From assembly GCA_963695855.1 (NCBI GenBank), contig CAVOHZ010000008.1, forward strand, positions 384,001-448,000: 64,000 nt of DNA, given 5' to 3'. Below, piece after piece: positions 18,359-21,180 of the stretch. The translations under genes were made by a program, and so were the position numbers. Under the pieces are notes generated by a model. It made no database searches and was not told the DNA's origin. It saw only the letters and a program-made list of their open reading frames with translations. The DNA comes from an uncultured Nitrososphaerales archaeon. Lineage in GTDB: Archaea > Thermoproteota > Nitrososphaeria > Nitrososphaerales > Nitrososphaeraceae. Position 1 is the first letter of the stretch, and every line of letters starts with the position of its first letter.

Positions 18359-18709
18359 TTTATCTTTTAGAAATTAGAATATCTCTTTAATGTTATATTA
18401 AATATTCTTTTTTACTATCTTTTAAATTTATATGAAAATCGAAAACCATTAGACATGTAATTCCTTATGTTACAGAACCTGGACAAATGTCGATCTTGAT
18501 AATATGGGATTATTTTAGCACAGATATTTTTGTAATGTATTATTAAGATTTATTATTAGATGTGTAATAGATAAATCGATCATAATCATATTTAAACCAC
18601 GTCAATAAATAGAATGTTTTGTACACAGTCACGTGAATGTTACATAAATATTATTCTTATTTGCATATACCAATTTCAGAATCTTTCGCAATGGATATAA
18701 AGACTCAAA

Positions 18710-19405
18710 TTGGTTCGAGAGTTACATCGAAATGTGAATATAGATAATTGTTTTTTTCCAGATAATCTTCTCTATGATATGGAAAATTTTGTCTGGGTTG
18801 ATATTTCTAATAAAAACTCCATTAAGTTAGGTATAACACCAATAATGTCGTCTATATCTGGCAGAGTGTTCTCTGTTAAATTAAAAGAAAAAAATATCAT
18901 TATTGCAAAGGGAAAAAGTGTCGGATCAATTGAAAGTTTAAAATATTTTGGAATAATAAGATCTCCAATTTCTGGCAAAATAGAAACTGAGAATAACAGA
19001 ATCATTGAAAAACCGAATTTGGTAAATGATAGTCCTTACGAACAAGGTTGGTTTGTAATAATTTATCCTACAAATTTAGAAAATGAATTAAAATATCTAA
19101 AGAACGCAAACGATTGTCGTGAACAATTGAAAATAATAATAAAAGATCTGAATGTTCGTTGTTTCAAGTATTTTCCAGACTACGAATTATATGAAATCGG
19201 ATCAGAATGCGTTGCGACACTGATGAAATTAGATGATTTGTTATCAACAATTAAGGTTGGTGAAATAGTATATTTAGTTTCAGATGATGTGACAGCAGAT
19301 ATTGAGCTTGAAAGATGGTCATTGGAGAATTCACAATCCGTTGTTGACATCAGAAAAGAGAAAAATCTTTTTCATTTTTTGATACGAAAAGAAAAAGATA
19401 TTTAA
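18710..19405 (+). CDS. Lipoyl-carrier (GcvH/LbpA-like) domain fused to a TusA/SirA-like sulfur-carrier domain
   Basis: CFFPDNLLYD, LGIT, GSIESLK (lipoyl-Lys position), SPISG and NDSPYEQGW in the N-terminal part. C-terminal ~75 aa has GSEC, VSDD, DIELERW and FHFLIRK. Confidence 0.85.
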   Translation: MVRELHRNVNIDNCFFPDNLLYDMENFVWVDISNKNSIKLGITPIMSSISGRVFSVKLKEKNIIIAKGKSVGSIESLKYFGIIRSPISGKIETENNRIIEKPNLVNDSPYEQGWFVIIYPTNLENELKYLKNANDCREQLKIIIKDLNVRCFKYFPDYELYEIGSECVATLMKLDDLLSTIKVGEIVYLVSDDVTADIELERWSLENSQSVVDIRKEKNLFHFLIRKEKDI

Positions 19406-19419
19406 AACTTCTATTGTAT

Positions 19420-20262
19420 TTATTTTTCTATTGGATTTGCTATCATATTTCCCCATTCTGTCCAAGACCCGTCATAATTCTTTACATCTTTATAACCTAA
19501 CAAATGTCTTAAAACAAACCATGTATGAGATGAACGTTCTCCTATTCTGCAGTATGTAATTACCTCTTTGTCCGGCGTAATTCCAGCTGATTCATATAGA
19601 TTTAAAAGATCATCGGCAGATTTGAATGTTCCATCCTCGTTTACTGCCTTAGACCATGGAATATTTACAGCACCGGGGATATGACCTCCTCTTTGTGCAT
19701 GTTCAGTTGGGTATTCGGGAGGTGCAGTGATCTGACCAGTAAATTCTGCTGGACTCCTTACATCAATTCTTACAGTCTTTTCAGATTGTAAAGAGTCTCT
19801 AACCTGATTTAAAAAAGACCTTAAATTTAAGTCTGGTTCACCAGGGAGTATATTTCCAGTAGTAAATGCAGGTATCTCTTTTGAAATTGGTCGGTCTTCT
19901 TCTAGCCATTTTTTCCTGCCTCCATTCATTATTTTAATGTTTTTCAAACCATAATATTCAAACACCCAAAAAGCGAAAGCAGCGAACCAATTGTTAAAAT
20001 CACCGTATAAAACTAAAGTGGTATCGTCATTTATTCCAGCTTTTTGTAGCAAGTTCAAACAATCATCCTTTGAAATAATATTTCTTGTAACCGGATCATT
20101 GATATCATTCTTCCAATCGAATATTACAGAATTTGGTATGTGGCCAAGAAAATAATTTGTCTTTGGATCATAATCCACCTCAGCTATACGTACTTTGTCA
20201 TCATTAAGGTGTTCTTCTACCCACTTTGTATCTACAAGTACATTAGGATTAGAGTACTCCAT
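19420..20262 (-). CDS. Tandem-domain rhodanese/thiosulfate sulfurtransferase (CysA/SseA type)
   Basis: GHIPNS, DVRSPAEF, GHIPGA, active loop YCRIGERS and YDGSWTEW. Confidence 0.95.
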   Translation of the reverse strand: MEYSNPNVLVDTKWVEEHLNDDKVRIAEVDYDPKTNYFLGHIPNSVIFDWKNDINDPVTRNIISKDDCLNLLQKAGINDDTTLVLYGDFNNWFAAFAFWVFEYYGLKNIKIMNGGRKKWLEEDRPISKEIPAFTTGNILPGEPDLNLRSFLNQVRDSLQSEKTVRIDVRSPAEFTGQITAPPEYPTEHAQRGGHIPGAVNIPWSKAVNEDGTFKSADDLLNLYESAGITPDKEVITYCRIGERSSHTWFVLRHLLGYKDVKNYDGSWTEWGNMIANPIEK

Positions 20263-20359: not shown

Positions 20360-20689
20360 ATGGATAAATTAGATTATATTTTTCAAATGCAAAAGGATTT
20401 AGAAAAATATGTTACTACTTCTCGATATCCCGAAAAGCTAGAGGATAGAATTTCAGCTTTGTCTGTAGCAATAATTCATGAAGCAGTAGAGCTCCAAAGA
20501 TTAACAAATTGGAAGTGGTGGAAAACACCAGTAGATTTTGATCTTAAACTTGCAAAAGAGGAATTGATAGATATCCTACATTTCATTATACAAGTTTCAA
20601 TAGAACTAGGAATGAGTCCTTCCGAAATATTACAAGAATTTTCAAATAAACATTCTGTAAATATGAACAGACAAAAAACTAACTACTAG
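20360..20689 (+). CDS. All-alpha (dimeric-type) dUTP diphosphatase / NTP pyrophosphatase
   Basis: HEAVEL, WKWWK, EELIDILHF and NMNRQ motifs. Confidence 0.85.
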   Translation: MDKLDYIFQMQKDLEKYVTTSRYPEKLEDRISALSVAIIHEAVELQRLTNWKWWKTPVDFDLKLAKEELIDILHFIIQVSIELGMSPSEILQEFSNKHSVNMNRQKTNY

Positions 20690-21180
20690 CTACTATCGAT
20701 TTTATTTTTCTTAAGTCTGTTAATCCGATTTTGTCTACTAATTCTATTTTATTTCTGAAATTTTCGATCTGTTCTTCTGTGCAGGATAAAATAGGATATG
20801 GACCTTTAGCACCAATTATTCTCTTTTCTCTACTAATTCCATTTTTTTTCAGAGAAATCAGAGCCTGACCTGAGAAATGTCCTCTAACATCTTTACCACA
20901 CATTAAAATAGTGTGTATTTTTTTATTTTCTTCTGTAAATTTTATGATCTGATCTATTCCTCTATTCTCCGAAAGTAGTCTACCGACTATCGATATTTTA
21001 TTCATAATTTCGCGATCTTTTCCAATTTTTTCTAGTAGTTTCAAACTAGATAAAGTACAAATTGCAATGTGACTCCCGTCTCCAAGAAAATACTGTTTTT
21101 TAATTGGAATTAAATAATAACAACAAATTCCAAGTATTTTGTCGAATTCAGATCTTATTGAGGATTCTTTTTTTATTCAT
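20679..21180 (-). CDS. Soluble MtrA-like (corrinoid-binding) protein; true start uncertain (ATA at 21176, or ATG at 21180 with a 1-nt frameshift in an A7 run)
   Basis: IAICTLSS, ENRGIDQII, CGKDVRGHFSGQAL and IIGAKGPYP motifs. The frame stays open upstream of the called start at 21044. Confidence 0.8.

Follow-up and report, generated by a model that had tools for sequence, protein, structure and literature searches.

The window analysed here, a 64,000-nucleotide stretch of contig CAVOHZ010000008.1 from an uncultured Nitrososphaerales archaeon, carries a gene that fuses an LbpA-like domain of the GcvH fold to a TusA-like domain. This gene lies tail to tail with that of a two-domain rhodanese, the two open reading frames (ORFs) ending 14 bp apart. 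We consider it reasonably probable that the fusion protein is a lipoate-independent, cysteine-based acceptor of sulfane sulfur for a dedicated rhodanese, and that the convergent pair of genes acts as a single functional module. A preliminary description of this DNA had proposed a one-protein persulfide shuttle that works with lipoate. Its link to the rhodanese is upheld by synteny and by a model of the complex, whereas the part given to lipoate falls with the absence of lipoylation genes and the variability of the lysine concerned.

Read as an ORF of 231 residues, the fusion matches the Pfam families GCV_H (E 1.2e-26, residues 22-141) and TusA (E 4.5e-6, residues 164-227). Its AlphaFold2 model, built on an alignment of 90 relatives, has a predicted local distance difference test score (pLDDT) of 92.4 and a predicted TM score (pTM) of 0.83. 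In a Foldseek search with this model, the first half matched H-proteins (1htp, E 9.2e-12, TM of target 0.92) and the second half matched TusA (3lvj_C, E 2.5e-5, TM of target 0.87). ORF, Pfam and Foldseek therefore agree on the joining of a lipoyl-carrier and a TusA-like domain that had been described before, and translation places Cys14, Lys78, Cys151 and Cys167 where they had been named.

In the model, Cys167 opens the helix of residues 167-178, which is the position of the TusA active site. The canonical TusA motif is CPxP around the cysteine; here the motif reads GSECVAT. On the TusA profile PF01206 the domain scores 26.9 bits by hmmscan against a cut-off of 28.6, the same stretch reaches 29.3 bits, above the cut-off, in a six-frame search of the genome, and the fusion orthologue of locus L035 scores 34.7 bits. 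A full CPGP motif is kept only in the distant fusion members P0121 and P0136, which argues on sequence grounds that the second domain is a true, diverged TusA. A separate canonical TusA with CPEP is encoded elsewhere in the same genome. Homologues in JGI and NCBI bear automatic names, many of them 'glycine cleavage system H protein' and others 'TusA family'; the former name is misleading for the fusion. In genus g23 the match to the fusion is split, with about 70 bases between query residues 35 and 36 (G134:C4:90812-91537, G277:C15:22076-22804, G168:C2:11420-12145). The split looks like an insertion in the loop behind the first strands; the fusion ORF of L035 has 250 residues.

The partner protein matches PF00581 in two stretches (E 5.8e-35), and the closest solved structure is 1uar, matched over the full length (E 2.6e-104). 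The catalytic cysteine of rhodaneses is placed by PMC11094781 in a CRxGx[R/T] loop, and the corresponding CRIGER motif, which here lies in the C-terminal domain, is kept in 25/25 linked rhodanese orthologues. Both ORFs and the spacer bear out the earlier statement that a CRIGER-type rhodanese ends 14 bp away on the opposite strand.

Across the class, 301 genomes were searched and 40 yielded a full-length match to the fusion (E 1e-45 or better), the unpublished genome G132 being counted in. By family code, fusion-bearing genomes make up 25 of 40 in the organism's own family (f1), 8 of 9 in f3, 5 of 9 in f7, 1 of 3 in f4, 1 of 1 in f9 and 0 of 180 in f2, the largest family. A rhodanese gene is convergent with the fusion in 39 of the 40, always tail to tail, with a distance of up to about 250 bp in 31 genomes and of 3.5-4.4 kb in the 8 f3 genomes; in the remaining genome the fusion stands at a contig end. 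These pairings come from fusion and rhodanese match coordinates joined by hand, and the rhodanese search also counts the unpublished genomes G231 and G283. Five family codes contain the pair, and fusion identity falls as low as 36%. Given this recurrence, and a rhodanese nearby in all but one case, the two-domain fusion is not a chance product. The comparison of synteny across the class, one of the checks that had been suggested, thus kept the pair together, and the link between fusion and rhodanese is further backed by a complex model that passes its controls (see below).

The surroundings of the pair differ between lineages. In f3, fusion and rhodanese are separated by two genes, one for a PhaC-like alpha/beta hydrolase and one for an ADP-forming acyl-CoA synthetase (L035:4872-9062, L036:4929-8349), the synthetase of L035 bearing a C-terminal GNAT domain. 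In f7 (L037:1092-5445, L038, L041), genes for an AmmeMemoRadiSam radical SAM enzyme (TIGR04337, 332.9 bits), for a short cysteine ligase of CysS/MshC-like type and for a GNAT protein lie beside the fusion, and these flanking genes have homologues elsewhere on contig C10 of the window's genome. Both sets were considered as additional partners and rejected, being unconserved across lineages. No further neighbour common to the fusion loci across lineages was found.

A tree of 40 rhodanese sequences resolves two clades, each with an SH-like approximate likelihood ratio test (SH-aLRT) support of 100. The first contains all 25 linked copies and 5 others. The second, general clade of 10 contains copies from fusion-free genomes together with second copies from fusion-bearing genomes, including one from the window's genome. 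Across the 301 genomes no E-value threshold cleanly separated linked from general rhodaneses, so that the co-occurrence is read from the 40 sequences placed in the tree. The host genome has five rhodanese matches at E ≤1e-20. Two of its paralogues were placed (G000:C8:203203-204042, L226, and G000:C10:365152-365988, L227): one belongs to the linked clade, with CGIGER and a long branch, and the other to the general clade.

Modelling the fusion and the rhodanese as a complex yielded a score of 0.68, against 0.04 for the best of three controls. A score of 0.68 is reached by 58 of 80 solved complexes and by 2 of 110 mismatched pairs, a calibration that is rough since our own alignments were supplied. 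The runs agreed in at least 91% of contacts, with a pLDDT of at least 87 for the partner. On the fusion, the predicted interface comprises residues 49, 57, 69-70, 73, 75-82, 146-148 and 158-159, among which 75-82 form the former lipoyl hairpin with Lys78. On the rhodanese it comprises residues 34-35, 88, 116-117, 120-121, 123 and 181-184. The physical complex and this interface are predictions of the model. By their molecule names, the 27 solved rhodanese relatives are only rhodaneses or sulfurtransferases and give no sign of such a complex (the names were read, not the whole entries), which makes it less likely that the model recalls a known structure.

Comparing the two rhodanese clades lends some weight to the predicted surface. 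The 25 linked rhodaneses and the 10 of the other clade have no residue in common at 15 of 280 positions, and these include 4 of the 12 predicted contact positions (34, 35, 120 and 123; Fisher one-sided p 0.002, which is indicative only because the rows are related). Four more clade-separating positions (36, 126, 130 and 186) adjoin predicted contacts. One stretch reads WLEED in the linked clade and WELEK in the general archaeal clade. This difference would agree with the hairpin acting in docking, its tip bearing a basic residue (K or R).

Conservation separates the cysteines of the fusion from the former lipoyl lysine. All three cysteines (Cys14, Cys151 and Cys167) are present in 90/90 close relatives, where position 78 is K in 87 and R in 3. 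The wider family was sampled by a profile search of 1.84 billion representatives, which gave 50 proteins at E ≤1e-30 as representatives at 50% identity; 33 of them are full-length two-domain proteins and, with the window protein, make up a set of 34 rows, the 17 rows left out of the count being fragments or single-domain pieces. Here Cys14 is kept in 32/34, Cys151 in 32/34 and Cys167 in 33/34, whereas position 78 is R in 19, K in 11, V, T and S in 1 each, and a gap in 1. The rows that lack cysteines are P0136 (D at 14, F at 151) and P0147 (gap at 14, L at 151 and 167). Members with a name come from Thermoprotei, Bathyarchaeia, Methanomassiliicoccales and Caldarchaeum metagenome-assembled genomes. 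Since the cysteines are kept while the lysine varies, the function of the family appears to rest on the three cysteines and not on a lipoyl-lysine. The preliminary description had staked its reading on conservation of both Cys167 and Lys78 in orthologues; the former stands, and the latter does not across the family, though it does in close relatives. P0136 (220 residues) shows the reverse of the usual pattern, keeping the lysine and CPGP while lacking Cys14 and Cys151, a hint that lysine and cysteine pair are perhaps alternatives.

The content of the host genome (3.55 Mb, 99.87% complete) points the same way. It encodes an archaeal AmoA (E 1.4e-117), and its closest protein relatives carry the name Nitrososphaeraceae; on these sequences the host is an ammonia-oxidising archaeon, as had been supposed. 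Profile searches found the H-domain of the fusion to be the sole GCV_H in this genome. The glycine-cleavage T-protein (GCV_T, PF01571) and P-protein (GDC-P, PF02347) had 0 matches in the whole genome, with controls positive in 10 and 11 of 14 genomes. Searches of the host genome for an LplA-type ligase (TIGR00545) returned nothing, and neither did those for LipA (TIGR00510), LipS1/LipS2 not being specifically searched for. The single PF03099 match, which also has a weak, sub-threshold PF21948 match, is BirA: it scores 153 bits on the biotin ligase model TIGR00121 (cut-off 83.1). No lipoate ligase or octanoyltransferase of a known family (PF03099, PF21948, TIGR00545) is therefore found in the host genome, and one PF03099 match only is also what most of 41 genomes sampled from the same family show (a tally that takes in the unpublished G321). 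Neither a CCG-domain (HdrB-type) protein nor DsrE was found anywhere in the genome, so there is no sHdr system. Controls of these genome-wide absence searches were positive in 8 to 12 of 14 reference genomes. As ligase, LipA and P- and T-proteins are absent and the lone gene of the ligase family is birA, the host has no known means of lipoylation and no known lipoate-dependent enzyme. What had been noted for the window, that gcvP/gcvT and sHdr genes are missing, thus extends to the whole genome, while the assignment of Lys78 as a lipoyl site in a 'lipoate-linked' protein has to be given up. Adjoining birA on contig C10, a 432-residue ORF (L002:2036-3334 in G000) carries six near-identical tandem copies of a unit of about 27 residues (…DVNSCPAVPEICNNGLDDDRDGFKDAE…), followed by another domain.

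The H-like domain itself resembles LbpA rather than a working GcvH. On the GcvH equivalog model TIGR00527 it scores 68.3 bits, below the cut-off of 115.85, whereas six GcvH of the same class score 134.7-164.3 bits. P0164, an LbpA from an sHdr cluster and the best single-domain match of the fusion-family profile, scores 85.1 bits. Relatives of P0164 in Aquificota, Thioalkalivibrio and others have loci of the order tusA-dsrE-dsrE-hdrC1-hdrB1-hdrA-hyp-hdrC2-hdrB2-(dsrE)-lbpA-radical SAM. The N- and C-terminal cysteines of this type of LbpA have their counterparts in Cys14 and Cys151 of the aligned fusion. Cao et al. 2018 (PMC6067878) give this pair of cysteines as a hallmark of LbpA, and in the structural models of a 2026 preprint (bioRxiv 10.64898/2026.10.01.755906) the two cysteines of LbpA lie near enough for a disulfide. 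The same two sources describe the lipoyl lysine of LbpA as strictly conserved.

In a tree of H-domains (100 rows, 148 columns, 'quick' method), the 34 fusion domains and one single-domain row form one clade with SH-aLRT 98, nested in a 77-row group to which all 17 LbpA from sHdr clusters belong. Ten canonical GcvH rows fall outside this LbpA-like group (support 85). The domain is thus LbpA-like by sequence features and by descent, yet it lacks both the defining context of LbpA (sHdr, lipoylation) and a family-wide lysine. The earlier assignment to the LbpA kind is therefore sustained by terminal cysteines, bit scores and tree placement, and the phylogeny that had been proposed as a check sets the domain with the LbpA-like group and apart from canonical GcvH, in a genome free of P- and T-proteins. 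NCBIfam has no LbpA model, and the domain scores far below the cut-offs of its 'GcvH_rel_desulf' and 'not_gcvH' models.

As a reference for sHdr LbpA we had also considered the P0167-type group, which was rejected in favour of the P0164 group because clustering of ORFs showed that its loci do not lie in shdr clusters. These P0167-type proteins, two-cysteine H-like proteins of Acidithiobacillus, Thioalkalivibrio and Acidiferrobacter, present an LbpA-like/rhodanese pairing outside sHdr (L085:8871-11534 and matching stretches of L046, L061, L069, L072, L074, L088, L100 and L116). Encoded beside them are a single-domain rhodanese, a Thioredoxin_3-containing membrane protein, a Crp-like regulator and HHE/hemerythrin-like proteins, where the names Crp and hemerythrin are a reading of the sequences and not the result of a family search.

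We propose the following sequence of events for a cysteine-based acceptor. Cys238 of the rhodanese would be loaded with sulfane sulfur from a donor such as thiosulfate, and the loaded enzyme would bind the fusion through the former lipoyl-lysine hairpin of the H-like domain, as the complex model predicts. Cysteines of the fusion, not lipoate, would then receive and carry the sulfur. Cys167, Cys14 and Cys151 are the only invariant reactive residues of the fusion and its candidate sites, the first being of TusA type and the other two a pair of LbpA type. Acting as a dithiol, this pair could resolve a persulfide, in the way that dihydrolipoate does with rhodanese in vitro (as cited in PMC6067878). 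The sulfur may in the end serve the assimilation of thiosulfate or sulfane sulfur, detoxification, or cofactor or tRNA thiolation. In this scheme we infer the direction of transfer, which cysteine receives the sulfur at the outset, its donor and its final use. For LbpA itself, PMC11094781 reports that TusA co-purified with it in Aquifex. A bolder form of the same idea, which we find possible but cannot call likely, is that protein alone has replaced the lipoyl arm: on an LbpA scaffold that no longer carries lipoate, Cys14/Cys151 together with Cys167 would serve the dedicated rhodanese as a dithiol acceptor, giving a couple that reduces thiosulfate or sulfane sulfur, with the hairpin kept purely for docking.

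Several observations weigh against a dedicated, lipoate-free acceptor. The TusA-like domain has lost CPxP and by hmmscan stays below the Pfam cut-off. The confident contacts of the complex model include no cysteine of the fusion and not Cys238. Convergent genes are not co-transcribed, and their synteny is weaker evidence than an operon would be. Two linked-clade rhodaneses, L230 and L231, come from two g61 genomes in which the fusion query finds GcvH-like matches only. Lys78 is nearly constant in close relatives and may have a role of its own in this lineage, and the search for lipoate synthesis was aimed at LipA and not at LipS1/LipS2. Finally, the H-domain tree is a quick one over 148 columns, with deeper branches at 85-93, below the star threshold.

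Some of these points feed alternative explanations. Were Lys78 lipoylated, sulfur would pass from the rhodanese to the TusA cysteine and on to a dihydrolipoyl arm. The retention of the lysine in 87/90 close relatives, the LbpA-like nature of the domain and the docking of the arm-bearing hairpin on the rhodanese all agree with this, as does the transfer of sulfane sulfur from rhodanese to dihydrolipoate in vitro, as cited in PMC6067878. We nevertheless regard a lipoylated shuttle as improbable: the known families of lipoate ligase and octanoyltransferase, and LipA as well, are missing from the genome, the genomes sampled from g1 (4) and g2 (3), G000 included, show the BirA-type match only, and R, V, T or S replaces the lysine in 22/34 representatives while the cysteines stay. 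An ordinary H-protein of glycine cleavage with a C-terminal extension, which the GCV_H match and the database names would suggest, has next to no probability left. A genome without T- and P-protein genes refutes it as far as a genome can show, and the sub-cut-off equivalog score and the position apart from canonical GcvH in the tree speak against it as well.

A more serious contender, though we still think it unlikely, is that the fusion passes no sulfur onwards but regulates the rhodanese or serves it as a structural subunit, for instance as a redox-sensing cap that gates the active-site cleft by a Cys14-Cys151 disulfide. The predicted interface, which joins the hairpin to the inter-domain region of the rhodanese and leaves out the TusA cysteine, would suit such a subunit, as would the degenerate TusA motif and the disulfide that the LbpA pair can form in models (bioRxiv 10.64898/2026.10.01.755906). 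However, Cys167 stands exactly at the TusA active-site position and is kept in 33/34, distant members keep the full CPGP, and for regulation alone, a third invariant cysteine in the fold of a sulfur carrier would be superfluous. Less probable again is a pairing that is mere inherited gene order, with the fusion working elsewhere, such as with a cysteine desulfurase in molybdenum cofactor (Moco), thiamine or tRNA thiolation, in the manner of a canonical TusA. That the genes are convergent and not transcribed together, that two unrelated genes separate them in f3 and that TusA proteins serve several pathways (PMC11094781) all agree with this explanation. Set against it are the persistence of the pair down to 36% fusion identity while all other neighbours change, a complex model that passes where controls reach at most 0.04, clade-specific rhodanese residues at the predicted interface, and the canonical CPEP TusA that the genome already has elsewhere.

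RNA data hint weakly that the locus is expressed in close relatives. Four rhizosphere RNA libraries of two studies contain contigs that match positions 18869-20240 with 95-99% or more identity, and two of these contigs, from different studies, bridge the 14-bp spacer. Such contigs show neither strand, start nor level, RNA libraries can contain DNA, and 18400-18868 is uncovered. Over window positions 19157-19585 these two contigs span both gene ends; if they are RNA, convergent transcripts overlap at their 3' ends.

The positions of both genes and of the residues discussed are collected in Table 1, with residue numbers counted from the TTG codon. Most fusion homologues have 223 residues and start at the position of Val9, which corresponds to GTG 18734, and residues 1-5 of the AlphaFold2 model fall below pLDDT 50. 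The true start is therefore probably GTG 18734, giving a protein of 223 residues in which Cys14, Lys78, Cys151 and Cys167 become Cys6, Lys70, Cys143 and Cys159. In the window, the fusion has UDG, dUTPase-like and MtrA-like genes as neighbours. At 20360-21044, the end of a 109-residue dUTPase_2/MazG-like protein (E 5.2e-16) overlaps with a 121-residue protein matching MtrA, subunit A of the methanogen methyltransferase (PF04208, E 1.3e-22), which is unexpected in an ammonia oxidiser.

Table 1. Coordinates of the fusion gene, the convergent rhodanese gene and their main elements in the window.
Feature	Position	Strand	Remark
Fusion gene, LbpA-like (GcvH-fold) and TusA-like domains	18710..19405	+	231-aa ORF from TTG
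LbpA-like H-domain, residues 9-150	18734..19159	+	holds Cys14 and former lipoyl hairpin E75-I82
Cys14 codon, in NCFFPDNLLYD	18749-18751	+	counted on ORF translation
Lys78 codon, in IESLK	18941-18943	+	counted on ORF translation
Cys151 codon, in LNVRC	19160..19162	+	linker behind C-terminal helix of H-domain
TusA-like domain, residues 153-231	19166..19402	+	Pfam TusA; Foldseek 3lvj_C
Cys167 codon, in GSECVAT	19208-19210	+	helix 1 start, where CPxP would stand
Spacer between the two convergent stop codons	19406..19419	.	14 bp
Two-domain rhodanese/thiosulfate sulfurtransferase, 280 aa	19420..20262	-	Pfam Rhodanese 5.8e-35
Rhodanese catalytic Cys238 codon, in YCRIGERS	19549-19551	-	motif in translation

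When comparing the module with known systems, LbpA is close in several respects. Both have the GcvH fold with one cysteine near the N-terminus and another behind the C-terminal helix, and LbpA works beside TusA and rhodanese-type sulfur transferases, as described in PMC11094781. The fusion differs in that its genome lacks sHdr, DsrE, lipoate ligase and LipA, that its gene lies neither in nor beside an shdr cluster, that its family has no conserved lipoyl lysine and that it is joined to a TusA-like domain. Moreover, the archaea that carry the fusion are not known as sulfur oxidisers. With TusA of E. coli (TusA/YhhP; 3lvj, 1dcj) the second domain shares the two-layer alpha/beta fold and the invariant cysteine at the N-terminus of helix 1, but it has GSECVAT in place of CPxP and sits behind an H-like domain. 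GcvH has the same fold and the hairpin motif ES-x-K; in contrast to it, the fusion stands in a genome with no P/T proteins or lipoylation genes, below the equivalog cut-off and outside the GcvH clade.

The rhodanese has the layout of the two-domain thiosulfate sulfurtransferases of Thermus thermophilus (1uar) and of the M. tuberculosis CysA2 type (3aax/3hwi), with an inactive N-domain and a catalytic CR-x-GER domain, whereas it belongs to the fusion-paired clade and has surface residues of its own at 34-36, 120 and 123. DsrC-type acceptors are two-cysteine sulfur acceptors in which the persulfide is resolved by a dithiol. The logic that we propose for the module, an enzyme persulfide passed to a resolving dithiol, is also that of the rhodanese/dihydrolipoate reaction (PMC6067878). 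In contrast to both, the dithiol here would be made of protein cysteines on an LbpA scaffold.

A full-text literature search returned work on LbpA, TusA and lipoylation but nothing that describes the fusion or a relative of LbpA without lipoate. So far LbpA, TusA and rhodaneses have been known as separate proteins of dissimilatory sulfur oxidisers, with LbpA lipoylated. What is new here is their union in a constant two-gene module of archaea, ammonia oxidisers among them, with no sHdr and no known lipoate synthesis or attachment: a lost cofactor, an unexpected host and a partner with a predicted interface. With the lysine dispensable and the cysteines kept, the family offers a natural experiment on the cysteine pair whose presence in LbpA is so far unexplained. 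If the protein-only arm were true, it would reveal the role of that conserved pair in bona fide LbpA, and soil ammonia oxidisers and other archaea could draw biosynthetic sulfide from thiosulfate. The module points to an unstudied piece of the sulfur metabolism of soil nitrifiers.

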